A stretch of 64,000 bases of DNA from a virus (UHGV-1430915); one strand, 5' to 3'. Shown: positions 40,819 through 52,128, numbered from the stretch's first letter. Notes: generated by a model from the letters alone, not told the origin. Numbers and translations are program-made.

Positions 40819-41058
40819 ATGTATAAGTCATTTTCAATCTACTCAAGACAGACAAAACACTACACAGAGATTCTGATCACTCAGAAAAAATCTGTGGAAG
40901 GTGAGTGGGAATATCATCATAAAATGTTGCGTCCAGACTGGGTTTTTGATAGGCTTATTGCTATGATCCCTCTTGGAGAAGTATACCCTCTGACAGGTCA
41001 TAGGGATGCTTGGGATTTAATTGACTATATAGATTCATTTAAGGAGCCTAGATTATGA
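40819..41058 (+). CDS. hypothetical protein
   Basis: start at ATG 40819 after AGAGGGGG. Confidence 0.5.
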   Translation: MYKSFSIYSRQTKHYTEILITQKKSVEGEWEYHHKMLRPDWVFDRLIAMIPLGEVYPLTGHRDAWDLIDYIDSFKEPRL

Positions 41059-41453
41059 AGATTGAGATTACTGAAGAAGGTAAGAAAGTCTCTGGTAACT
41101 ATGCAACAGTTATCCGTGATGTAATGTTCGAAGTCACTAAGATTGGCACATCCAAGGTTGGTCAAACGGTGAGTGTGCAAGGTAATATCACCTCAGGAGA
41201 GAAGATATTCATCGTAATAAAAGGCCAGGACCCTGTAGAAGGGACAGTTGGACGTGGCGGATACCTGTGTATCTCTGAAGAGCCTCGCATGCTAGTTGCT
41301 GATAACTCTACAGGTAAAAAGCGGGTATGTAACACGGACGAGGTGATGATTATCTATCCAGTCAACCCGGATGATCCGGCAACATGGATTGTGGGAAATG
41401 AAATCTTCTCTTTAGAAGAGTTATCCTTCCCAGCTCCGCGATCTGTTCAGTAA
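41055..41453 (+). CDS. hypothetical protein
   Basis: 132-aa ORF; MKIEIT start as in other members of the region. Confidence 0.5.
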   Translation: MKIEITEEGKKVSGNYATVIRDVMFEVTKIGTSKVGQTVSVQGNITSGEKIFIVIKGQDPVEGTVGRGGYLCISEEPRMLVADNSTGKKRVCNTDEVMIIYPVNPDDPATWIVGNEIFSLEELSFPAPRSVQ

Positions 41454-41492
41454 TAATTTATCTTACCAGGGACGGTAAAAGTAGGAGGTAGC

Positions 41493-41726
41493 ATGAAAGT
41501 TAAATTTCTTACAGATTTAGGGTACCCTTCCTTGGTTGACTGTGTTGGTAAAATTGTGGAAGCAAAACGGCTATCTGCAAACGATAATGTTGTCATGGTT
41601 AAGGGAAAAGATTTACTAGCTGCAGGTGCAGAGTCTGGCAGGATCTCTCCTGACTATACGTATTACCTGTCTTTAAGTAATCTACCAGAACGAGGCGGCA
41701 AAGGCCTTGAAGTTGTGGAGGAGTGA
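41493..41726 (+). CDS. small acidic protein, family A (KGxDLxAAGA subgroup)
   Basis: MKVKFL...KGKDLLAAGAESG...LEVVEE; paralog of 45053, 45267, 47136. Confidence 0.55.
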   Translation: MKVKFLTDLGYPSLVDCVGKIVEAKRLSANDNVVMVKGKDLLAAGAESGRISPDYTYYLSLSNLPERGGKGLEVVEE

Positions 41727-42268
41727 CAGGTATGCTTCTGATTAACTGGGAAGACCTCTATGGGGACAAAGACCCTGTTGCGTTTGTTGATCGTAGGTGG
41801 AGGTACACTGAAGAACAACTGGCTGCAAAAAATTTAACTGCAAAACGCAGAAAGATCATCCAGTGCAAGTACAAATACGCACAGTTTGCTGCAAAAGTGT
41901 CTCCACAAATCGAGAGTTTTGTACTTAAATTGTATGACGAGTACCTCAAATTCAAATTGGATTTTGTACAGGTATACCGTGCACAGGTACGTCCAGATAC
42001 CAACATCTGTAGATGGAAGGTTGTTTGTGATGGTAAAGATTTGCCGCTCAGTTTGACAATTGAGTGGCGTTGGGGGTATCATGAGTGCGGTTTGTATGAT
42101 ATTTGGGATGTCATTGTAGATCCTGCTAAGTACCTGAACACAGAGGAGCTGGAATATATCAATAAGGTTATTCTAGATATGTTTTTCAGCTACACCCATG
42201 AAAACTCTGAGAAAGAACGGGATAATTTTCTTGACACCCTCGGCAACCACCTGCAGTGTACAATTTAA
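41723..42268 (+). CDS. hypothetical protein
   Basis: 181-aa ORF. Confidence 0.5.
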   Translation: MTGMLLINWEDLYGDKDPVAFVDRRWRYTEEQLAAKNLTAKRRKIIQCKYKYAQFAAKVSPQIESFVLKLYDEYLKFKLDFVQVYRAQVRPDTNICRWKVVCDGKDLPLSLTIEWRWGYHECGLYDIWDVIVDPAKYLNTEELEYINKVILDMFFSYTHENSEKERDNFLDTLGNHLQCTI

Positions 42269-42286
42269 CCTACAAAGGAGGAGCCA

Positions 42287-42523
42287 ATGAGTATAGATGC
42301 TGTGCTGATAGGTTACCTGGTAGTAGCTGTTATAACAGCAGTAATCTTGGCAGGTATATGCATCGTGTCTACCCGAAGGGTGAAGTTTGATGATTTTATC
42401 ACCATCATCACTGCTGCGCCCTTTTGGCCTGTTGTTATCTTCATCGTAATAATGTGCCTAGTTGATTACCACAAGAATATCCGTAAGGAGAAAAAGGAGA
42501 GTAGGGATGGATACCGCACCTAA
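42287..42523 (+). CDS. small membrane protein with two predicted TM helices
   Basis: 78 aa, two hydrophobic segments, charged C-terminus. Confidence 0.5.
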   Translation: MSIDAVLIGYLVVAVITAVILAGICIVSTRRVKFDDFITIITAAPFWPVVIFIVIMCLVDYHKNIRKEKKESRDGYRT

Positions 42524-42742
42524 AACTGTTTATACTGTTCTTAAAGAGATTGCATTCTACGCAGATCTTAGCCGGGCACCTTTATGGGAAAAGAATATGT
42601 ATTTAAAATGGTGCGTGAAATTAGGGGGGCCTTCTAATGTTTCAAGCCATGTTTATTGAAATGCTCTCTGGGGTATTACTGCTGGTAGCCATTTTAGGTG
42701 GCGCGGCGCTGATGTATAATTATCTTGAAAAAGGGGACAGTA

Positions 42743-42928
42743 ATGACAAAAAATAAATCCTTAGAACAGGCTGAAAACCTTCTCCACGAGCTGGTAAAGG
42801 AGTGGAAAGTTGAATACTCAGATTTTAATGCAAGAGAGGGGGAAGATTATTGGCCTACGGAGCGCTCAGAGGGAGAGTGGTATCAAGATTTCATAGAATG
42901 GCTATATCAGACGTGCGATGAGGGGTGA
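42743..42928 (+). CDS. hypothetical protein
   Basis: start at ATG 42743 after AAGGGG. Confidence 0.45.
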   Translation: MTKNKSLEQAENLLHELVKEWKVEYSDFNAREGEDYWPTERSEGEWYQDFIEWLYQTCDEG

Positions 42929-42930
42929 CG

Positions 42931-43386
42931 ATGTTTGTTAAATATGTAAAAACGTGCCTCAACAACCTTGGTAGAGAGCATTGGTACACACTGCTTGAAA
43001 AAGGAGAAATTTTAACAAAATCTGGAAAGATAACTTTGATACCTTTGGACGATAAAGACCCGTCACTACTTGTCATAGATGATTACGTTACAGGTGTGTC
43101 GTACGAGGTATCTGTGGAGAGGTTAATACGCAGATCTGGAGGTCCTTATGACCGAAGAGAGTATGTTTTCGATTCCGTTACAGAGAAGGAAGATCCGTCT
43201 CTAATGTTTAGGATGGTAATCAGGGATATGAAATCATCTATAAATAGGATCGTAAAGGACATTAAGGAGCCTTTTAGGGTAAAAGTTAAGAAGTTTTTTG
43301 ATTCTAAGATCAACATACTTGCAGTTGTGCTAGGCGTAATTCAACTTCTGTTAATTTTGCACTATTTTGAACTGTTGTTTAAGTAA
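42931..43386 (+). CDS. hypothetical protein with C-terminal TM segment
   Basis: ATG 42931; C-terminal ILAVVLGVIQLLLILHYF. Confidence 0.5.
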   Translation: MFVKYVKTCLNNLGREHWYTLLEKGEILTKSGKITLIPLDDKDPSLLVIDDYVTGVSYEVSVERLIRRSGGPYDRREYVFDSVTEKEDPSLMFRMVIRDMKSSINRIVKDIKEPFRVKVKKFFDSKINILAVVLGVIQLLLILHYFELLFK

Positions 43387-43446
43387 TGTGCATTATGGCA
43401 CAAAGGATGTGCCATAACTAAATAAACTAAGAAAGAGGTAGAGAGA

Positions 43447-43794
43447 ATGTCAAAGATTAAATCGATATTAATGTGGGTGGCTGTTGTAGCTTTTGTAGGA
43501 TACTGGACTTGGGAAACTGAATTAAAAGATATTGGGTATACCAGTCTTGAGAGTAAGGCGTGCATTGGCATAACCGATGCATTCAGGCAGAATGCTATGG
43601 ATCACGAATGTGTCGATGCAGATATAGATGAGAAACTGTCTAAGGACAAAGATTTTTACCATGGTCATGCCTTGCTTGATAGTGGTGATACTGTAGAATT
43701 CTGGTCGTGGTTCCGTGAAGATGGGACAATAAAGACAGCAGTAAAGATTTCCAACAAAGAGTTGATGCTGTTGCAGCAGAAGGAGGTGCAATGA
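43447..43794 (+). CDS. hypothetical exported or membrane-anchored protein
   Basis: N-terminal hydrophobic LMWVAVVAFVGYWTW. Confidence 0.5.
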   Translation: MSKIKSILMWVAVVAFVGYWTWETELKDIGYTSLESKACIGITDAFRQNAMDHECVDADIDEKLSKDKDFYHGHALLDSGDTVEFWSWFREDGTIKTAVKISNKELMLLQQKEVQ

Positions 43795-44078
43795 TCTGGA
43801 TATCCTACGCTGATGGCACTATGCTGTATACTGCAGGTACTAGATATGAAGTTAAGGAGGACGATAAAAAATTTATCGTAAAAACATTTGACAAGGACGA
43901 CAACCTTTTGCTAGAATTGACTTACAAGGTTGGGGATGTATCTAGCATCCAATTGGATTGCGGTCATAAAGATAACCCGCTCAAGAAACCTGGGGTAGGT
44001 AAAGCTTCAGAAGAACGCCTGTCTCGTATTGCAGAAAGCGTTTCTGCACAAAAATCTAAAAAGGGGACTAGAAAATGA
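43791..44078 (+). CDS. hypothetical protein
   Basis: 95-aa ORF overlapping previous stop. Confidence 0.5.
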   Translation: MIWISYADGTMLYTAGTRYEVKEDDKKFIVKTFDKDDNLLLELTYKVGDVSSIQLDCGHKDNPLKKPGVGKASEERLSRIAESVSAQKSKKGTRK

Positions 44079-44269
44079 AAAACTTACATTTTAACACTTA
44101 TTACTACAACACTTTGAATGATTTGTATTATATTGTTCGAAGTAAAAATCCTGAAACAGTCCTATTCTGCCGCGAACCTTTCAAAGGAGAGGAAGTGGAG
44201 TCTGAGATGAATGTTAGCCAGATTACCTCTTTGTTGCTCTCAGGTGCAATGGAAGAAGCAATATTCTAA
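44075..44269 (+). CDS. hypothetical protein
   Basis: 64-aa ORF. Confidence 0.45.
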   Translation: MKNLHFNTYYYNTLNDLYYIVRSKNPETVLFCREPFKGEEVESEMNVSQITSLLLSGAMEEAIF

Positions 44270-44287
44270 ACCAGGCGGGAGGGTTTT

Positions 44288-44476
44288 ATGAAGCACTATT
44301 GTCTGTCTGGTAGGATGGGGGTGGATTGTGATTGGGTTTTCTTAAAACTTGTCAGCGTTCGAGAGTCCATCCCAGAGGAAGAGCAAGAAAGCGAGCTGAT
44401 GTCATGGATCAACCATTACGGTAACACTTTTCGGCATGTTAAGGTAGAAGAGTTGCCAAGCGAGGCTGAATTATGA
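44288..44476 (+). CDS. hypothetical protein
   Basis: 62-aa ORF. Confidence 0.45.
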   Translation: MKHYCLSGRMGVDCDWVFLKLVSVRESIPEEEQESELMSWINHYGNTFRHVKVEELPSEAEL

Positions 44477-44769
44477 AACTTTTTGAGTGGTTTAAAAAGT
44501 TTAAATATAAAGCTGTAGCCATCGTGCCGTGGTCCATTCAGTGGGTTGATGAAGGTGGTCTACCGATACCTGGTGACAAAGATACTGGGTACTGGATTAT
44601 GATGGAGAACGGGTTTGGAAAGCGAAAGTATACGTGCACAAACTCTACTCGATCTGCACTTAATAGAGTGCCTGGTTACAAACTTATGGTTGTGTGGAAA
44701 ATGTCAGGCGTGCCTCCAGCCAATGCTCAATTTCTTACTGACAATCCGACCACGGTAGAGGGAGATTGA
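44473..44769 (+). CDS. hypothetical protein
   Basis: 98-aa ORF. Confidence 0.5.
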   Translation: MKLFEWFKKFKYKAVAIVPWSIQWVDEGGLPIPGDKDTGYWIMMENGFGKRKYTCTNSTRSALNRVPGYKLMVVWKMSGVPPANAQFLTDNPTTVEGD

Positions 44770-44771
44770 TA

Positions 44772-45053
44772 ATGAAAAAGATTAACAGTAGTGAAGTAGA
44801 GTTTAAACTTGTCGGAAAAGGCACTTACTGGGAAGTTCGTCAAAAGGTATATTTGTTCGGTCTTATTCCCTACTGGTCTAAATTCTACTGGGGAGCTAAC
44901 GAGTTGGGAAGATACGCCACCAAATCAATGGCACTTATTGGTATAGCAGAGTACATTGCAGCCCGAGACAGGGTTGGAACCACTTATTACTACACTGCTG
45001 ACGATATTCGTAACAGTGTTTACGTCCCACAACCACCTGATGGAGACCGTTGA
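44772..45053 (+). CDS. hypothetical protein
   Basis: start at ATG 44772. Confidence 0.5.
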   Translation: MKKINSSEVEFKLVGKGTYWEVRQKVYLFGLIPYWSKFYWGANELGRYATKSMALIGIAEYIAARDRVGTTYYYTADDIRNSVYVPQPPDGDR

Positions 45054-45277
45054 TGAAAGTTAAAGTTTTAGATTCAAGCTTCTATATTGGTCAGGAGCCT
45101 TTAGTAGGAAAAGTGTTTACTGCTGTCCCTAACGAAGATTACCCTGACCTTTTAAAAATAAAAGGAGCAGATCTTATTGCCGCTGGTGCATCTCAGGAAT
45201 GCTTTGACAGTCAGTGGACCTATAACTTTGCCCTAGGTGAGGATGTAGAGGTAGTGGAGGACGATCATGAAGGTTAA
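45053..45277 (+). CDS. small acidic protein, family A
   Basis: MKVKVLDSSFY...KGADLIAAGASQE...VEVVEDDHEG; first gene of tandem triplet 1. Confidence 0.55.
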   Translation: MKVKVLDSSFYIGQEPLVGKVFTAVPNEDYPDLLKIKGADLIAAGASQECFDSQWTYNFALGEDVEVVEDDHEG

Positions 45278-45521
45278 AATTCTTGATTCTAACGTCTACT
45301 TGGGACAATCCTTCCTGAATGGAAAGGTCGTTCCTGCGGTATACTTTGAAGGGTTGCCGTGGGATGATCCTGTGCGGCAACATCACAGTTATGTAGGCCA
45401 CAACGTGGTGTTTATCTTGGGATCAGACCTGATCACCGCTGGTGCACCTGAATATTATTTCGGGGAAGAGTCCTACTATGCCTTTGGGGTAGGGTCAGAT
45501 GCAGATATTGTAGAGCTGTGA
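45267..45521 (+). CDS. small acidic protein, family A
   Basis: MKVKILDSNVY...GSDLITAGAPEY; second gene of triplet 1. Confidence 0.55.
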   Translation: MKVKILDSNVYLGQSFLNGKVVPAVYFEGLPWDDPVRQHHSYVGHNVVFILGSDLITAGAPEYYFGEESYYAFGVGSDADIVEL

Positions 45522-45533
45522 TGGGTAACCGTT

Positions 45534-45923
45534 GTGAAAAATAAACTGTTTAAAGTTACAATGAAAATTCGCGGAGCTTGGAGCGTAAAGCAAGGGCGCA
45601 TCCCAGAGTTTGAGAAAGACTTCTACGTAGTCTCCACCTCTGAAGAGGCTGCATGCTGGCAGGCTGGATATGCCTATGCAAGAACCTGGTACGAAGGATA
45701 CCAGACTGGAGGCTATGACGGAGAAATTGTCAGCAAGGGTGTGGAAGAAATTAATGTGTTGACAAGTGAAAAAGTTTTTGTTATAGTGCATCCTGATTCT
45801 AGAGTGAAGCATTACTGGAATGCCAGAACAAAAACCTGGACACCGTTTGCAGATTCTGCTACACCGCTTTTAAACCAGAAAGCTCTTGACTCTGCCCCAA
45901 GCTATGTGTTGAAGAAAAGATAA
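45534..45923 (+). CDS. hypothetical protein, family B
   Basis: HPDSRVKHYWNARTKTWTP paralogous to HPHSNIAYYWDVLNNEWTP in 47736..48131; GTG start, alternative ATG 45561. Confidence 0.5.
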   Translation: MKNKLFKVTMKIRGAWSVKQGRIPEFEKDFYVVSTSEEAACWQAGYAYARTWYEGYQTGGYDGEIVSKGVEEINVLTSEKVFVIVHPDSRVKHYWNARTKTWTPFADSATPLLNQKALDSAPSYVLKKR

Positions 45924-46007
45924 GCTGAAATAGTGGGGTACTTACATGATGGATTTAGTTTTGGACACTGATAACACCGAATCGTTTAAAAAGATGGTGT
46001 AATAAGC

Positions 46008-46235
46008 ATGGACCAACCCTGCCATGCCAAGATTGACTCAAAATGGACCTACAAGTTTGACGGTGAGATCTTCGCAAATGATGAGAAGGTCGTGGATGCT
46101 GTAGCCATTTTAAACGCTTTAGGGTATGACCCTGTGAACTCATTGATCAAGGATCCTGTTGAGTTTGCAGAGTATGTTCGTAAAATGGCAGATCTTGCAG
46201 TAGATATTTTAAAAACTATCGACGACAAGCTGTAA
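46008..46235 (+). CDS. hypothetical protein
   Basis: 75-aa ORF. Confidence 0.5.
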   Translation: MDQPCHAKIDSKWTYKFDGEIFANDEKVVDAVAILNALGYDPVNSLIKDPVEFAEYVRKMADLAVDILKTIDDKL

Positions 46236-46241
46236 AAACTG

Positions 46242-46270
46242 TTGACACAACACTTGATCTTTAGTATCAT
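46242..46270 (+). promoter_or_regulatory. sigma70-like promoter upstream of HPF homologue
   Basis: TTGACA-17 nt-TATCAT. Confidence 0.6.
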
Positions 46271-46317
46271 TATTTTCAAAGAGGGTTTGGTTCCCTCTTC
46301 TTTAAAAGGAGCACGTT

Positions 46318-46635
46318 ATGCAGATTGAAATCACTGGCAACGTAGATATCACTGAAGGTATGGTGTCTTTCATTTCCCACAAAATGTCCAAACTGGAGCG
46401 TTTGCACCCATCTGCCAACTATGCACGTGTGAGTGTAAAAGTTGAAAATGATCACCAGGAAGTTATGGCTTTTATTTTTGACAATTCTGGGAAAGAAGTT
46501 ATCGCCAAAGCTAAAGGTAGCGATGCTTACGAGGCAACTGACCGTATGGTGGATGTTGCAGCACGCCAGTTGGCTAAATGCGGTGGAAAGAAAGGTAAGG
46601 GAAAAGGTAAAGTAAAGATTGACTTTTTAGATTAA
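46318..46635 (+). CDS. hpf: ribosome hibernation promoting factor homologue (HPF/YfiA family)
   Basis: alignable with E. coli HPF: MQIEITGN.VDITE, KLE, VKVE, AKAKGSDAYEATD, ARQLAK; Lys/Gly-rich tail. Confidence 0.7.
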   Translation: MQIEITGNVDITEGMVSFISHKMSKLERLHPSANYARVSVKVENDHQEVMAFIFDNSGKEVIAKAKGSDAYEATDRMVDVAARQLAKCGGKKGKGKGKVKIDFLD

Positions 46636-46773
46636 GGTGCTACAATGGGCATGATTAAGAAATTAGTCCCAAATGTAGAGATTGCATGCTTTGAAATTAT
46701 GTTTGCAATCGCAGTTGTAGTTAATGTGTTAGGTTACGGCTATTAATTATCAAATAATTGAGGAGACCTCTAA

Positions 46774-47043
46774 ATGAAAATTAAATTATTCAAAACTGAG
46801 CTGGCAGACAAAAACTGCGGACTGGTTGAAGGCATGATCGTTGAAGCACAACCAGTTGACTACATGAAGGTGGTTCGTGATGCCCTGGGTGAAGGTTTTG
46901 ATCTGATGGAGCCAGCTCTGCGAGAAGATGTCATCGAGATGGCTAAAAAGCACACACCGGAAGGTTTGGTAGTGTTTGTTGCACCAGGTAACGGGGAAGA
47001 GTTGATTGTAACTCCGGATGTGTATGAGGTTGTAGAAGAGTAA
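46774..47043 (+). CDS. small acidic protein, family A (YEVVEE subgroup)
   Basis: MKIKLF...YEVVEE; similar to 48208..48468. Confidence 0.5.
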   Translation: MKIKLFKTELADKNCGLVEGMIVEAQPVDYMKVVRDALGEGFDLMEPALREDVIEMAKKHTPEGLVVFVAPGNGEELIVTPDVYEVVEE

Positions 47044-47135
47044 TCCTGCTTGGGTTGGAATACTTTCCTCGACAAGAAAGGTTTATAATTATTTGTGGGA
47101 AAGGAATCCCCATCTCTTACCAGAGGTGATACTAT

Positions 47136-47399
47136 ATGATTGTTTATTTTAAAACTTCAGGTGGATACCCTGATTCTCAAAGCTTGATTGGAAAAACGTG
47201 CACAGCATACTCCCCTCTTGATGAGGAGGTAAGTGGTATCCTACGAGATATGTATCGGATTGATCCACAAGAAGCTTTTGATCAAAACCTTGTATTTGTC
47301 AAGGGATCAGACATAAAGTCTTTGGGGGCATTCCCTGAAGCAGATGATGATGCTGTTTATTCGTTTATGACACCTTTTGAAGCTATGGTTGTGGGGTAA
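47136..47399 (+). CDS. small acidic protein, family A
   Basis: KGSDIKSLGAFPE; first gene of tandem triplet 2. Confidence 0.55.
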   Translation: MIVYFKTSGGYPDSQSLIGKTCTAYSPLDEEVSGILRDMYRIDPQEAFDQNLVFVKGSDIKSLGAFPEADDDAVYSFMTPFEAMVVG

Positions 47400-47403
47400 G
47401 AAT

Positions 47404-47736
47404 ATGAAAGTACGCTTTATTGGTGAAACAATTCCTGTGCATCTCCGGTCTCCTGAAGACTCTGCAGATCTTGCATCTCAAAAGGCGAGAGGGTATGATA
47501 AGAAAGTGATCTCAAGCAATGTAGAGCTTGAGGCCACCAGTCTGCCTGACCCAGCTGCATTCTTCAATCATTATGGCTACTATTTTAGCAATCTGATGAA
47601 TATTGGTGAGCTTGTGTTTATTAGTGGTGGAGAGATAGTTAGCAAGCTTGGTGGAGATCCGGATATCTTTCATGAAACCTGTCCTTTTGCATTTGTGGTG
47701 GGTTCAGATGTGGAAGTTATTGAGGAGGTTCGGTAA
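47404..47736 (+). CDS. small acidic protein, family A-like
   Basis: MKVRFIG...VVGSDVEVIEEVR; second gene of triplet 2. Confidence 0.5.
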   Translation: MKVRFIGETIPVHLRSPEDSADLASQKARGYDKKVISSNVELEATSLPDPAAFFNHYGYYFSNLMNIGELVFISGGEIVSKLGGDPDIFHETCPFAFVVGSDVEVIEEVR

Positions 47737-48131
47737 TGGTAAGTCTATACCGTGTTGAGTATAGCTCGGATACTGTATACAACGTAAGAAGCAAAGATCG
47801 CAGTGATAGAGTGCAAGAAATGTATGTTCTTGCAGATAGTCCGTTATCTGCAGCGTTCAAGGCAGGAGCTCTTGCATCTCGTTGGAAATTTGAGGGTGGA
47901 TCTTTCTATGAAGAAACCCTCGAAGATTCTGTTGTTATTTCTTCTGTAGAGGTTTCAACCGACTACGAAGGGAAAAAGTTCGTAATGCGGCACCCACACA
48001 GCAACATTGCGTACTACTGGGATGTTCTGAACAATGAGTGGACCCCTGATCTTCAGAAGGCCACTGTTCTAACCCCATTCCTGGCAGATAAGTTCCCACC
48101 AGAAGGTAATTTATCTGCACTGTTTCAGTAA
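47736..48131 (+). CDS. hypothetical protein, family B
   Basis: paralog of 45534..45923; third gene of triplet 2. Confidence 0.55.
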   Translation: MVSLYRVEYSSDTVYNVRSKDRSDRVQEMYVLADSPLSAAFKAGALASRWKFEGGSFYEETLEDSVVISSVEVSTDYEGKKFVMRHPHSNIAYYWDVLNNEWTPDLQKATVLTPFLADKFPPEGNLSALFQ

Positions 48132-48149
48132 TTTTATGCCACACAGGTG

Positions 48150-48178
48150 TTGACAACACCAACCCTGTGTGCAATAAT
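48150..48178 (+). promoter_or_regulatory. sigma70-like promoter
   Basis: TTGACA-17 nt-AATAAT. Confidence 0.5.
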
Positions 48179-48207
48179 ACCTTCATCTTAACAAGATAGG
48201 AGACCGA

Positions 48208-48468
48208 TTGATGAAGATTAAATTGAAAAACCTTGAAACGGCAGAGATTCAGGAAGGTGTTGATTTCCGTTCTAAAGATGGAGACATCCTAGAGGCGAAT
48301 GTCCCGACATATAAGTTGATTAAAGGTTTTGGCAACGTTCCGGAGGAGGATATTACAGACATTCTTATGATGTTGATCCTTGACGGGACTGTGTTTGTAG
48401 GTGAAGGTGAGAACGCTATTGCAATCCCGAGCCATTTTTATGAAGTAGTTGACGAAGAGGTGCTGTAA
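48208..48468 (+). CDS. small acidic protein, family A (YEVVDEE subgroup)
   Basis: MMKIKLKNLE...FYEVVDEEVL. Confidence 0.5.
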   Translation: MMKIKLKNLETAEIQEGVDFRSKDGDILEANVPTYKLIKGFGNVPEEDITDILMMLILDGTVFVGEGENAIAIPSHFYEVVDEEVL

Positions 48469-48819
48469 ATGAAAGTAGAGATCACAGGTTTTGATATGAA
48501 TGCGGTTCCGGAAGATATTTTAGCTAAACTCCCGGAAGGTTTTGGTAACGGTGTTGTGGTTGATGCTGTTCCTCCTACCAAAGACATCCTGCTGCAGTAT
48601 GGTGTGGCAGAGGAAGATGTTGATAAAGTTCTTACAATGATGGCAATCGACCGTGTTGTCGTTGTTAAAGGTCTTGAAGGTTTTGATAACGATCCTCTGA
48701 TTATTCGTGGTGATGACTATCGTATCATCGACAACGAAGGTCAGGGGTTCTACGAACCTTCTGCTGAAGATGTTCTTAACTTACTACTGGAAGCAGGTAC
48801 CGTAGAGGAGGCAGAATAA
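48469..48819 (+). CDS. small acidic protein
   Basis: 116 aa, MKVEITG start, acidic. Confidence 0.5.
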   Translation: MKVEITGFDMNAVPEDILAKLPEGFGNGVVVDAVPPTKDILLQYGVAEEDVDKVLTMMAIDRVVVVKGLEGFDNDPLIIRGDDYRIIDNEGQGFYEPSAEDVLNLLLEAGTVEEAE

Positions 48820-49148
48820 TGAAAATTGATCCGTTACTGAAGGCTCGTGCAGAAAAAGCATACACTATTAAGCTGACCTCTCTGGTTCCTACTTGTCATC
48901 CAGATGTAGGTTGGCCTGAAGGTCTGGTAGAGGGGACTGTAACAGCCGCATATCTCCCTAACATCAAATACCTCATGGAGATCTTGGAGATGGATGAGGA
49001 AACGGCAGAACAGTTCCAGTTAGACATGAAGCAAAGTGGGACTCTGGTTATTCACGGGTGGTATAATACTAAAGATGCAGAAGATCCCCTGGTAACTTCT
49101 AATCTGGCATATGAGATCTTAGGGCCTTTGAACTTGGGGGAAGACTAA
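48819..49148 (+). CDS. hypothetical acidic protein
   Basis: 109-aa ORF, stop/start overlap. Confidence 0.5.
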   Translation: MKIDPLLKARAEKAYTIKLTSLVPTCHPDVGWPEGLVEGTVTAAYLPNIKYLMEILEMDEETAEQFQLDMKQSGTLVIHGWYNTKDAEDPLVTSNLAYEILGPLNLGED

Positions 49149-49435
49149 TGAAAGATTTGGTTAAGATCAAGATTAAAGACACCAATGGAGAACTCAGCCA
49201 TTTTGGAATTAACGATGGTGACGAGCTGATCGCCCACCTGCCTACCAAGGAAGTTGTAAGCAAAGCGGTTGCCGGAGAAGAAGATGCAATGCAGGCTGCA
49301 GGTGTGGATGAAAACTATGTAGCAATGTGTATGTGCCGAGATCAGGTTGTTCTGTATAAAGCGTATCGACCAAATGGAGCACCTGAGTGGCTTGTTTTCC
49401 GACCCGAAGGATATGAAATTTTAGAGACGCTATGA
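49148..49435 (+). CDS. hypothetical acidic protein
   Basis: 95-aa ORF. Confidence 0.5.
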   Translation: MKDLVKIKIKDTNGELSHFGINDGDELIAHLPTKEVVSKAVAGEEDAMQAAGVDENYVAMCMCRDQVVLYKAYRPNGAPEWLVFRPEGYEILETL

Positions 49436-49524
49436 TAAATCTTGCCAAGGTTGCAACGGCACTGTTAATTATTTGCTGGATAGTGACCTTGGCACTATGT
49501 CTTGTATTTCATTAAGGGGGCTGT

Positions 49525-49788
49525 ATGAACATCTTGGTGTGGGTTGTAGCAGTAGCGTTTGTTGCGTGCCTCTCTTGTTGGGTTGCTGTGAGGATTTCTA
49601 TAGCCACTCTTCGGAAATTAGGGTTCTCAGAGTGGGATATTAATATCCTTTCTTTTCGCAATGAGACAATCTCAGCCGCCCTGCTGTGTAAGAAGTTTAA
49701 GTGGGAACCTTGTGAGGTCATGAACTATCTAAGAACAGGAGATATTCCTGAGAGATTTAAAAAAGTTCTTGACGGCAAAGACAAATGA
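49525..49788 (+). CDS. small membrane protein
   Basis: N-terminal TM segment ILVWVVAVAFVACLSCWVAV. Confidence 0.5.
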   Translation: MNILVWVVAVAFVACLSCWVAVRISIATLRKLGFSEWDINILSFRNETISAALLCKKFKWEPCEVMNYLRTGDIPERFKKVLDGKDK

Positions 49789-49943
49789 TAGTATAGTGAC
49801 TAACAAGAGGTGAGGAATGACTGATTTTACTGAAGCTTTAATGATGGCCTTATCTGTTTTAGCGCTATCGGTGTGTTTTGGGGCGTTATTCACATCTCTG
49901 GTTAAAGTTTTACATACCATATTCTCACCCAAGGAGCACAGTA

Positions 49944-50195
49944 ATGACGAAGATTGACTTAAATGCTGGCGACCATGTTGTTGTCAAATGCATCGGGGAT
50001 TATCTTGGATTCACAATCGGCAATACTTACGAGGCAGTGGTGGCGAAGGTTTATCATGATAAAGTCCTTAGCCTTGTATTTGACTGTGATGATGACGGAG
50101 ATGACCGCTACGTCTGTGAGGTGCTGGCACGTGACGATAGTGAAGACCAGAAATTCCTGGTTATCGAACTGAACGGTATTTTTGTAGAACGTTAA
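49944..50195 (+). CDS. hypothetical acidic protein
   Basis: start at ATG 49944 after AAGGAG; track ORF begins at 49878. Confidence 0.5.
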   Translation: MTKIDLNAGDHVVVKCIGDYLGFTIGNTYEAVVAKVYHDKVLSLVFDCDDDGDDRYVCEVLARDDSEDQKFLVIELNGIFVER

Positions 50196-50223
50196 TTTAA
50201 AACAATATAAGGAGACTCTTACT

Positions 50224-50529
50224 ATGGCTAAATCTAAAGTTGAACTGTTCACCTCTCTGCCTTCTGACACTGCAGAGCGTGATCGCCTCCGTAAAACAAT
50301 TGAAGAGCTGGTGGAACTTCAGCTTCAGATTAAAGATCTGAAAGACGCTATCAAGGATATTATTCTTGTAGAGAAACAGGATCACCTATATTCTCCTAAG
50401 TTTATCAAGTCATTGGTGGCTACCGAATTCGATATCCGCTATGAAGCTGAAAAACGTCGAGCTAAAATCGAAGAAGAGGTTGAGCACATGTCTGAAGCAG
50501 ACATTCTGTTCAAACGCTCTGCAGAATAA
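50224..50529 (+). CDS. hypothetical coiled-coil protein
   Basis: 101 aa, charged heptad-like sequence. Confidence 0.55.
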   Translation: MAKSKVELFTSLPSDTAERDRLRKTIEELVELQLQIKDLKDAIKDIILVEKQDHLYSPKFIKSLVATEFDIRYEAEKRRAKIEEEVEHMSEADILFKRSAE

Positions 50530-50535
50530 CAACGA

Positions 50536-50561
50536 AGAGGGGTCTTGGCCCCTCTTTTTTA
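50536..50561 (+). terminator. intrinsic terminator
   Basis: AGAGGGG-tcttgg-CCCCTCT followed by TTTTT. Confidence 0.7.
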
Positions 50562-50583
50562 CTATCTATGAAGGAGATTAGAG

Positions 50584-50910
50584 ATGCTAATGCCGATTAC
50601 TGTAAAAGAACTAAATGAACGTGATGCAGGAGGCCTGTGGCCTGCACGGAAAATACGCTGCGTTTATATGAAAGAGAATCTTGAACACCTTGATCAACAG
50701 ATTGCGGTTGGCGATATTTTCGAAGTTCTCTATTCTAATCGTCGCAACTGGGAAACCATTCAACCTTCCGGTTTTGTTCTTGCCAGACTTGATACCGGAG
50801 AAGTGATTATCCCTGGGCTGGATATTGTCTTCGAAATTATCCAGGAGTGGGATCCTGATAAGATTAAATATGAAGAGTTATTCGGTGAAGGTATTATCAA
50901 GCCTGTATGA
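50584..50910 (+). CDS. hypothetical protein
   Basis: 108-aa ORF after terminator, AAGGAG RBS. Confidence 0.5.
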   Translation: MLMPITVKELNERDAGGLWPARKIRCVYMKENLEHLDQQIAVGDIFEVLYSNRRNWETIQPSGFVLARLDTGEVIIPGLDIVFEIIQEWDPDKIKYEELFGEGIIKPV

Positions 50911-51218
50911 GGTGGATTATGTCTACAACGACAGCTAAATACTCCTATATGCCAGCAACCTCGGCAGAAATAGACTTCAGTTTTGATGTGTTTCCATTGT
51001 TTGAGGTGGTTCTGGCATACCCAACAATACTATCTACTCCTGAATCCCTTGTACCTGTTAAGTTGCAGAACGCTATGCATTCCATGCATTACAACAATAA
51101 ATGTAGGCACAGATGGTGTCAAGACGAGGAAAAAGATCTGGAGAGTTTGAAAGATTTTGACAGTCACCTTTTGACACCTTTTAGTTACTCAAACCTAGAC
51201 AAGCCTTCATGGGTATAG
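50907..51218 (+). CDS. hypothetical protein
   Basis: 103-aa ORF. Confidence 0.5.
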   Translation: MRWIMSTTTAKYSYMPATSAEIDFSFDVFPLFEVVLAYPTILSTPESLVPVKLQNAMHSMHYNNKCRHRWCQDEEKDLESLKDFDSHLLTPFSYSNLDKPSWV

Positions 51219-51431
51219 CAAAATATCAAATTTAAGGCACATAGGACGCTATGTGGCGTCCTTTTCTTTATCTGGTGCACGATTCCATACCTTAAGCAGT
51301 TAATCTCATTACAGAGCGTTTAAAGGCGGCTTACAAGCAACTCTCTATTTCGAGCGTAGCGAGAACGCACGTCCGTTTTGACCCAAATCACCATACGCTC
51401 GGATTTTAACCAAACCCTCGCGGCGTTTCTG

Positions 51432-51460
51432 TTGACACATTACCGCTCCAGTGATAATAT
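51432..51460 (+). promoter_or_regulatory. sigma70-like promoter
   Basis: TTGACA-17 nt-TAATAT; lies inside track ORF 51378..51791, whose 5' part is therefore rejected. Confidence 0.6.
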
Positions 51461-51480
51461 CCACACATCATTTGGAGAAT

Positions 51481-51582
51481 ATGGGATACACAATGAAAAC
51501 ATTGTCAGAGGTTTTGGTGGTGATCCTGATGATCATTACGTCCATAGTGGCTGTTGCCGGAATACTCACGGGTGGAACATGA
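51481..51582 (+). CDS. small hydrophobic peptide (33 aa)
   Basis: ATG after GGAGAAT downstream of promoter; single TM-like segment; stop overlaps next ATG. Confidence 0.35.
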   Translation: MGYTMKTLSEVLVVILMIITSIVAVAGILTGGT

Positions 51583-51791
51583 TAAACACACATGCATCTG
51601 AAGAGACATCCAAAGGAGTGACTATATGTCCCTTGGCTGAGCCAGTGAAAGAGGAAAACTTAGATTCTGAAGATTCTCCATCTTCGCTCCAGGTAGATCC
51701 TGAGGCTGATGACCTAACGTGGGAAGACATCGTAGACATCTGGTTCTCCATTATGCCTGAGCACGAAGAGTTCAGAGGTGGCAGACTATGA
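51579..51791 (+). CDS. hypothetical acidic protein
   Basis: in-frame 3' part of track ORF 51378..51791 starting at ATG 51579. Confidence 0.35.
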   Translation: MINTHASEETSKGVTICPLAEPVKEENLDSEDSPSSLQVDPEADDLTWEDIVDIWFSIMPEHEEFRGGRL

Positions 51792-51912
51792 AGCACCGAG
51801 CCCACACAGGTTCCTCATGCTAAAGCATGGCCTGAAGAGGCAAACGTGCATAATTCCTGTGCATTGGAACGTATAAAACCCTGTTCACACTCTCATTTCT
51901 AGAGGAGATTTC

Positions 51913-52128
51913 ATGAAGATAGAAATATTTGGTGGAGCTGACAACACTTGTGGCCTGATTTACCTCGAATTCGATGAATCGTACCTGCCAGAAGTGTTAA
52001 ACATGGATTCTGTTGCTGAGGCTTTGGGAGTAAGTCCTAAAGATCTCTACTCTGGTGCTGAGATTGATGGTTGGGAGGAGACCATGAACATCGATTTCAG
52101 TGAAGTAGGTGATGAACCGCTGGACTGA
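51913..52128 (+). CDS. small acidic protein, family A-like
   Basis: MKIEIFGG start, 71 aa, acidic. Confidence 0.5.
   Translation: MKIEIFGGADNTCGLIYLEFDESYLPEVLNMDSVAEALGVSPKDLYSGAEIDGWEETMNIDFSEVGDEPLD

Follow-up and report, generated by a model that had tools for sequence, protein, structure and literature searches.

Families of small paralogous genes, two of them predicted SH3-like barrels, in a region shared with rV5-like Escherichia phages

Large lytic phages are full of small genes without known relatives, and one region of virus UHGV-1430915 raises the question of whether such genes can be reduced to a few families and of what those families may do. The stretch of DNA analyzed here, 64,000 nucleotides long and called the window below, carries between 41.0 and 52.2 kb a series of short genes that a first-pass annotation, made from the sequence alone, described as an expansion of at least ten small acidic paralogs (41055 to 52128) with an MK[VI]K start and an acidic [VI]VEE-like C terminus, proposing copy number, selection and predicted structure as points to compare. 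The window is the genome of an rV5-like phage (genus Vequintavirus). Over this region it shares 92 to 96% identity with over 110 rV5-like Escherichia phages from that genus, with vB_EcoM-ECP26 as the closest match (96% identity, 100% query coverage), and the counterpart of the region in rV5 comprises open reading frames (ORFs) 126 to 163, nearly all annotated as hypothetical. A sister lineage is represented by four uncultivated viral contigs of 118 to 141 kb, with patchy nucleotide identity of 67 to 87% to the window. Here we establish, for twelve genes in this region, each named by its first nucleotide, which families they form, the fold predicted for ten of them, their copy number and order, the purifying selection acting on them and how they are distributed among phages. 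The first-pass observation was largely right and can be sharpened to two five-member barrel families, A1 and A2, plus a two-member family B.

Three sequence families

All-against-all blastp of 33 plus-strand genes, together with profile searches, identified 41493, 45053, 45267, 47136 and 47404 as what is, by these comparisons, a true sequence family, A1. The blastp links inside A1 ranged from E 1e-14 to 1e-4 (45053 versus 45267, 40% identity, E 1.4e-14; 45053 versus 41493, E 8.5e-8; 45267 versus 47404, E 1e-4). A hidden Markov model (HMM) built from three seeds recovered 47136 (E 8e-6) and 47404 (E 1e-4) among the 715 six-frame ORFs of the window, with the first non-member match at E 1.4, and profile-profile alignment with hhalign joined the members at P 3e-18 to 2e-5. 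These are the five genes that had been grouped by a KGxDL[IL]AAGA core, and the subgroup proved real by all three methods. PHROGs places 41493, 45053 and 45267 in phrog_5009 (E 1e-32 to 1e-38), to which 47136 has a weak match (E 1.6e-4).

The A1 members carry different inserts. Gene 41493 (41493 to 41726; 77 aa; isoelectric point [pI], 5.4; phrog_5009, E 2.5e-36; ratio of nonsynonymous to synonymous substitution rates [dN/dS], 0.10) is of a "founder" type, having 68% identity to its ortholog in the sister lineage and 51% to P0086, a homolog from lambdoid prophages. The other four belong to two repeated units described below. In unit 1, gene 1 is 45053 (45053 to 45277, 74 aa), which overlaps by 11 nt with gene 2, 45267 (45267 to 45521, 84 aa), a protein with a 14-aa insert behind strand 2. 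In unit 2, gene 1 is 47136 (47136 to 47399, 87 aa; phrog_13920; hhalign to 41493, P 6.7e-6), with a 20-aa insert behind strand 2, and gene 2 is 47404 (47404 to 47736, 110 aa; phrog_13661; hhalign to 45267, P 1.4e-5), in which a long insert after strand 1 replaces the strand 1-2 loop and reaches beyond strand 2. Across 34 A1 sequences, residues G38, D40 and G45 were invariant or nearly so.

A second sequence family, A2, is made up, by the same kinds of comparison, of 46774, 48211, 48469, 48819 and 49148. The top three non-seed matches of a two-seed HMM were 48819, 49148 and 46774, and iteration converged on exactly these five genes. Their hhalign links were weak with near-identical orthologs alone and became firm once diverged sister-lineage orthologs were added (P 3e-9 to 7e-5, with 48819 the weakest). 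Gene 46774 (46774 to 47043, 89 aa; dN/dS 0.04), whose sister-lineage ortholog is 56% identical, aligned to 48211 at P 2.7e-9 and to 49148 (49148 to 49435, 95 aa; dN/dS 0.05) at P 3.2e-6; 48211 itself (48211 to 48468) encodes 85 aa and occurs as divergent alleles. The 116-aa product of 48469 (48469 to 48819; hhalign to 48211, P 3.6e-8) has an acidic C-terminal extension and a net charge of −18, whereas its 91-aa sister-lineage ortholog is without the extension and ends in YEVLEE (contig L062) or YEVVEE (contig L065).

The weakest of the five is 48819 (48819 to 49148, 109 aa), a probable member: it matched the A2 HMM at E 7.7e-4 among the 33 genes and was the top non-seed match among the 715 ORFs at E 0.023, hhalign gave only P 0.011 over 69 columns, and a search of the sister lineage found no ortholog. 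In a 657-bp ENA contig (P0057), an N-terminal part belonging to DUF7399 (PF24132) is joined to the C-terminal half of a 48819 ortholog. We regard P0057 as a chimera, because the DUF7399 part is absent from Vequintavirus genomes (it is encoded nowhere in the one complete genome searched), and dropped it as a link from A2 to a Pfam family; it arose either by recombination with another phage or as an artifact of assembly.

Family B, likewise proposed by the first-pass annotation and upheld here, is by sequence a true two-gene family encoding proteins of about 130 aa (27% identity, blastp E 7e-10; hhalign P 1e-15), both of which fall in phrog_7379. Gene 3 of unit 1, 45534 (45534 to 45923, 129 aa, pI 9.3; phrog_7379 E 9.5e-70; dN/dS 0.09), has a GTG start behind a poor Shine-Dalgarno sequence, and the longer N terminus is conserved in 47736 and in the sister-lineage ortholog P0097; Shine-Dalgarno sequences precede nearly all starts in the region. 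Gene 3 of unit 2 is 47736 (47736 to 48131, 131 aa, pI 4.85; phrog_7379 E 4.2e-66; dN/dS 0.04). P0097 is 37% identical to 45534 and 26% to 47736, and P0094, from another lineage, is 40% identical to 47736 and 27% to 45534. A search of 1.84 billion representatives with the B HMM yielded two diverged full-length relatives and fragments. A 1900-aa repeat protein, P0098, was rejected as a B homolog, its match being a repeated YYWTVRA strand motif, and no relatives of P0094 were found in IMG/VR.

Predicted fold and repeated gene order

AlphaFold2 was run on the family alignments of A1 (45053) and A2 (48211), and both models were confident, with a pLDDT (predicted local distance difference test) score of 91.7 and a predicted template modeling (pTM) score of 0.79 for A1, and 90.1 and 0.77, respectively, for A2. 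On these models, the A1 and A2 proteins (ten of the twelve, 74 to 116 aa) are predicted to be five-stranded SH3-like barrels, with five antiparallel strands in a partly open barrel and adjacent N- and C-terminal strands. The KGxDLxAAGA element forms a short helix after strand 3 in the A1 model, while in the A2 model two helices form a hairpin between strands 2 and 3. It is mainly this 2-3 loop that varies in length, as it holds an insert of 0 to 45 aa in A1 and the helical hairpin in A2. Strand 1 corresponds to the N-terminal MK[VI]K[VIL] and strand 5 to the C-terminal [YV]E[VI][VI]E. Since these two strands adjoin in SH3-like barrels, the MKVK and VVEE motifs would most simply be fold scaffolding, not an active site.

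The ten genes with these motifs share one predicted fold, although they constitute two sequence families rather than one. The MK[VI]K-type start is not diagnostic of membership, because it is also found in the unrelated HPF gene 46318; the outermost genes of the interval first proposed, 41055 to 41453 and 51913 to 52128, matched the family HMMs only at E >1.

Structural comparison in BFVD matched the 48211 model to an independent model of the 49148 ortholog from ECP32 (probability 1.0, TM score 0.67) and to an 86-aa protein of Vibrio phage Vc1 (31% identity, TM score 0.73), which tblastn did not recover. The A1 and A2 family profiles aligned in register at P 5e-4 to 8e-4, a first alignment with five sequences each having given P 0.02 to 0.04. 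The shared predicted fold and this weak profile link make a common ancestry of A1 and A2 likely. Consistent with the earlier remark that no member carries a catalytic motif, no recognizable enzyme family emerged: Pfam-A gave no match at E up to 1 for ten of the twelve proteins and chance-level matches only for 48819 and 49148 (SycN, LRAT and HTH_16; E 0.07 to 0.22, far below gathering scores), NCBIfam gave only chance-level matches far below cut-off, and sequence searches of the PDB returned nothing usable. Nor did the Pfam profiles of canonical SH3, KOW or Tudor families match significantly. The description of the proteins as acidic holds for nine of the ten A proteins, with pI 4.05 to 4.7, 13 to 22% D+E and 5 to 10% K+R, and fails for 41493 and for the B protein 45534; net charges are −7 to −18.

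Two neighboring small acidic genes may be further small barrels, and neither reaches significance as a candidate: 49944 (49944 to 50195) is almost invariant (dN/dS 0.006), and 50584 (50584 to 50910) matched the iterated A1 HMM at E 0.001 to 0.03. The third BFVD match of the A2 model (TM score 0.52) is a phage CM1 protein that, like the 49944 product, is 83 aa long.

The order [A1, A1, B] occurs at 45053 to 45923 (unit 1) and again at 47136 to 48131 (unit 2), as had been reported, and it is non-random: in a permutation test on the 33 genes, the chance that each B gene would directly follow two A1 genes was P = 1.2e-4. A claim that the units reflect recent duplication did not stand. By blastn, neither the two units nor any pair of paralogs resembled each other at the nucleotide level, paralogous proteins share 27 to 40% identity, each B gene has its own diverged ortholog, and the layout is identical in the seven Vequintavirus loci fetched, in the colinear locus of phage MiataMamis and in one complete genome, that is, in every rV5-like locus examined; on this sequence evidence, therefore, the duplication is not recent.

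How the two units arose admits several possibilities. The two B genes pair with each other and the nearest paralog of 47404 is 45267, as fits positional correspondence between units, while a neighbor-joining tree pairs the two A1 genes inside each unit rather than by position (bootstrap 51 and 73). Triplet duplication followed by gene conversion, independent tandem duplications and a long-branch artifact are all possible explanations. Gene conversion is compatible with the tree, because natural 45053/45267 recombinants exist: P0006 and P0007 are metagenomic fusion ORFs whose N-terminal half comes from 45053 and whose C-terminal half comes from 45267. Three further metagenomic variants were noted, namely an internal deletion within 45267 (P0091), a fusion, at a KVV microhomology, between residues 1 to 22 of 45267 and the C-terminal part of 46008 (P0092) and a joining of 45534 to 46008 (P0095). 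Since these five ORFs delete parts of the array, the array is prone to recombinational collapse.

Conservation, distribution and genome setting

Run on one complete genome, that of a relative with 95% identity, the family HMMs found five A1, five A2 and two B genes, all in this region, and no other match below E 1 among 1509 six-frame ORFs. All twelve genes are present in seven of seven Vequintavirus loci, eleven of them intact throughout; 49148 is intact in six, being frameshifted only in the rV5 record. Pooled dN/dS over the seven loci was 0.04 to 0.19 for the twelve genes, like that of neighboring genes, and all twelve are under purifying selection.

Each member gene was found by tblastn in about 118 phage records, and none of A1, A2 or B was found in other phage genera among the 50,697 phage records searched. 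Single sequences and family profiles, searched against 5.8 billion proteins, returned only Vequintavirus-type orthologs besides the lambdoid P0086 and P0087. P0086 is a 75-aa A1 homolog of 41493 (51% identity, E 5e-21) from lambdoid Escherichia coli prophages, where it stands alone between the Q antiterminator and holin genes; it is single-copy in 46 temperate-phage contigs, mostly of about 50 to 57 kb, with neither A2 nor B. It lies within a run of about ten small unannotated ORFs, a classic moron slot, and no neighbor resembles the window genes. An old note on rV5 likening ORF142 to a protein of Listeria phage A118 was reproduced by no search.

The sister lineage is colinear with the window and has one A1 gene (the 41493 ortholog), one B gene and four tandem A2 genes. 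It is without the second unit and without HPF, and two unrelated ORFs occupy the positions of 45053 and 45267; the two ORFs upstream of its B gene were rejected as hidden A1 genes (P >0.1). Because the sister lineage has four tandem A2 genes, the A2 run predates the split of the lineages, whereas A1 either expanded in Vequintavirus alone or lost its additional copies in the sister lineage. Copy number is thus twelve in Vequintavirus, six in the sister lineage and one in lambdoid prophages, and the expansion of small paralogous proteins, as proposed by the first-pass annotation, is real and lineage-specific. At the 48211 locus, phage MiataMamis carries an allele of 52% identity (locus L011, 9001 to 9249) in an otherwise colinear locus, and gene 44075 has alleles down to 67% amino acid identity, which points to allelic replacement at single small genes.

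All twelve genes lie on the plus strand within the non-structural gene block. Their region is the distal part of a long plus-strand block that starts at about 15 kb and also holds ribonucleotide reductase-sized ORFs and genes annotated in rV5 as PhoH-like and ClpP; the rV5 genome paper treats genes 82 to 163 as one transcriptional unit. Two sigma-70-type promoters, each matching 11 of 12 consensus positions, were found on this strand. TTGACA-17-TATCAT at 46242 to 46270, ahead of the HPF gene, corresponds in position to the annotated rV5 promoter P144, and TTGACA-17-AATAAT at 48150 to 48178, with an extended −10 TG, lies ahead of the four-gene A2 run, before 48211, as does rV5 promoter P150 before the 48211 ortholog. 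An intrinsic plus-strand terminator at 50534 to 50557 (a 10-bp stem followed by a T run) ends the operon begun at 48150 and matches the position of a terminator annotated in rV5 after the 50224 ortholog. From these signals, three operons are predicted: an upstream unit running through 41493 and unit 1; one headed by the promoter at 46242 and containing HPF, then the A2 gene 46774, then unit 2; and one containing the four-gene A2 run plus downstream genes.

The HPF gene, 46318 (46318 to 46635, plus strand), encodes a ribosome hibernation factor of the HPF/RaiA type (PF02482, E 1.8e-12), is so annotated in related genomes and sits between the two [A1, A1, B] units. In the otherwise colinear sister lineage it is missing, and tiny hydrophobic ORFs follow the retained promoter. 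Gene 42925 (42925 to 43386) is the ortholog of rV5 gp133, which the rV5 paper lists as a predominant virion protein although the gene lies in the non-structural region. Elsewhere in the window, seven tRNA calls cluster on the minus strand at 10346 to 11157; one of them is a 99-nt ARAGORN prediction (10590 to 10688) whose anticodon has four bases (atcc) and to which no amino acid is assigned. Eighteen UNVERIFIED records labeled as Campylobacter jejuni phages (MG0656xx) are 92 to 94% identical to the region, and their host label looks doubtful.

What the barrels may do

The simplest reading of these proteins, each about as large as one SH3-like domain, is that they may form a group of binding modules, every one retained for a partner of its own. 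Our favored version of it, which we hold tentatively and at less than even confidence, is that they may be acidic binding or inhibitor modules acting against host or defense proteins; we favor it because the SH3-like fold is a binding fold, the proteins are acidic and acidic SH3-like inhibitors have been described in phages. Each paralog would be a non-enzymatic module made early in infection; having specialized after duplication, each would dock onto a different, probably basic and nucleic acid-binding, host or defense protein, which would thereby be blocked or redirected. The genes behave as accessory and modular units, as this reading would have it: A1 stands alone in lambdoid prophages, the sister lineage has a reduced set, and deletions and fusions occur naturally.

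Among the closest published analogues is TifA (Orf65) of Enterococcus phage phi47, a small protein with an SH3-like domain and 21.3% acidic residues that binds and inhibits type IV restriction enzymes (PMC11322646). Like the A proteins, it is SH3-like and comparably acidic (21.3% versus 13 to 22%), has no enzyme motifs and has homologs confined to related phages; it has an electronegative surface and acts by direct binding. It is single-copy, and its target and mechanism have been demonstrated, whereas the window proteins are known from sequence and models. No Enterococcus phage was among the tblastn matches of 48211 (E up to 10) or 46774 (E up to 5) in the 50,697 phage records. Bacillus phage Phi3T encodes Nip, an inhibitor of the SpbK TIR NADase (PMC11984713), which is likewise a counter-defense protein composed of SH3-like domains and acting by binding; unlike the window proteins, it comes from a temperate phage and is 279 aa long, with two such domains and an HU-like dimerization domain.

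Several observations weigh against this binding and inhibition. Neighboring genes outside the families are equally acidic on average (16% D+E), so the acidity is not special to the families, and one B copy, 45534, is basic. The low dN/dS is not the signature expected of a fast arms race, although the divergent alleles of 48211 hint at some diversification. Protein binding, inhibition of host targets and early expression of the family genes are our inferences, the last drawn from promoter consensus and gene position. As for anti-restriction DNA mimics of the Ocr/ArdA type, in which acidic side chains on an elongated surface copy the phosphate pattern of B-DNA, Ocr is helical, unlike the compact barrel predicted here.

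A bolder form of the same idea, a "binder array," appears rather doubtful. In it, the ten barrels would be one scaffold, duplicated and re-looped, each copy neutralizing a different host defense or nucleic acid-binding protein; single cassettes would be exchangeable with temperate phages, as with the copy in the lambdoid Q-holin slot, and each A1 pair would have B as its partner or co-factor.

Among other explanations, an action of the barrels on RNA or the ribosome, in the manner of LSm-, KOW- or L24-like proteins, is unlikely. The gene order of one predicted operon, HPF followed by A2, A1, A1 and B, speaks for it, as does a set of sequence-dissimilar small-barrel early proteins of T4 that has been linked to mRNA level (PMC12152347). 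That set (GoF, MotB.1, Frd.2) consists of LSm-like early proteins of SH3 topology in the Tevenvirinae (PMC12152347) and resembles the window set in comprising several sequence-dissimilar small proteins of one large lytic coliphage with a predicted five-stranded small beta-barrel, encoded by early-region genes (an inferred position for the window genes) and confined to one phage lineage. The T4 genes are non-essential in the laboratory and scattered, and their barrel is an N-terminal domain to which extra C-terminal domains are added, whereas in the window the barrel is the whole protein, in ten copies that are clustered in tandem and markedly acidic. No sequence relation to GoF or MotB.1 emerged with the A1 and A2 HMMs (hmmsearch E 0.16 to 0.54; hhalign P 0.13 to 0.55). 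Moreover, net charges of −7 to −18 with few basic residues are unfavorable for direct RNA binding, and the linkage to HPF is not conserved, since the sister lineage keeps four A2 genes without HPF.

Similarly improbable is service to the phage's own machinery, with the barrels acting as adaptors, chaperones or regulators of the nucleotide metabolism and replication proteins encoded upstream. The families share a transcription block with the ribonucleotide reductase-sized ORFs, PhoH-like and ClpP, and strong purifying selection with a genus-wide fixed copy number fits slowly co-evolving housekeeping partners. One A1 nevertheless occurs alone in unrelated lambdoid prophages lacking those partners, the sister lineage manages with half the copies, and natural deletion variants exist. 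In addition, the virion proteins named in the main text of the rV5 paper include none of the family members, gp133 being the only one from the region.

We think it very unlikely that the proteins are oligomeric sponges for small-molecule immune signals or other ligands, with KGxDLxAAGA of A1 as the ligand pocket. They are small accessory proteins of an abundant type without catalytic motifs, as small as known phage sponges; the conserved A1 element is rich in glycine and alanine (G38, D40, G45), and A1 occupies a moron slot in prophages. PDB searches, though, gave no sequence or fold match to a known sponge family, and the motif may simply pack a short helix against the barrel. Least credible is the view that the shared motifs are compositional or generic (the start of a beta-strand, an acidic tail) and that homology fails for most of the family: the MK[VI]x start of the non-members HPF, 41055 and 51913, the modest P value of the A1-A2 link and the weak support for 48819 fit it, but full-length profile matches within A1, A2 and B (P down to 3e-18, 3e-9 and 1e-15), a clean score gap to the 715 and 1509 six-frame decoy ORFs, the independent joining by PHROGs of three A1 genes and of both B genes, and the confident models obtained from family alignments largely refute it within each family, so that it survives for the A1-A2 link only.

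The components of this array have been catalogued one by one. The window proteins are full-length members of phrog_5009, 13920, 13661, 11868, 12359, 12155 and 7379 (E 1e-32 to 1e-74), all listed as of unknown function and with no fold given; PHROGs thus distributes the ten barrels, eight of which were scanned, over at least six unlinked families and the whole array over at least seven. The rV5 genome paper makes no mention of the paralogs, and our literature searches found them nowhere described and found no Vequintavirus transcriptome. PHROGs records neither the superfamily nor the array nor the twofold [A1, A1, B] order, and the array is newly described here. It is of a familiar kind nonetheless, that of lineage-specific paralogous small accessory proteins on a common binding fold.

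For the rV5/BASEL Vequintavirus group, the analysis reduces twelve "hypothetical proteins" to three families, and ten of them to one predicted fold, and separates scaffold residues from a variable loop. It also offers a small, concrete gene set for functional screens in E. coli K-12, for which the phages have already been distributed. If inhibition is not what the proteins do, the array is still a neat though ordinary set of paralogous accessory genes. If they are inhibitors, they would provide a natural example of one scaffold diversified against several targets, and if the whole set works as a binder array, the region would be a compact, mineable anti-defense or host-takeover island built from a single fold.

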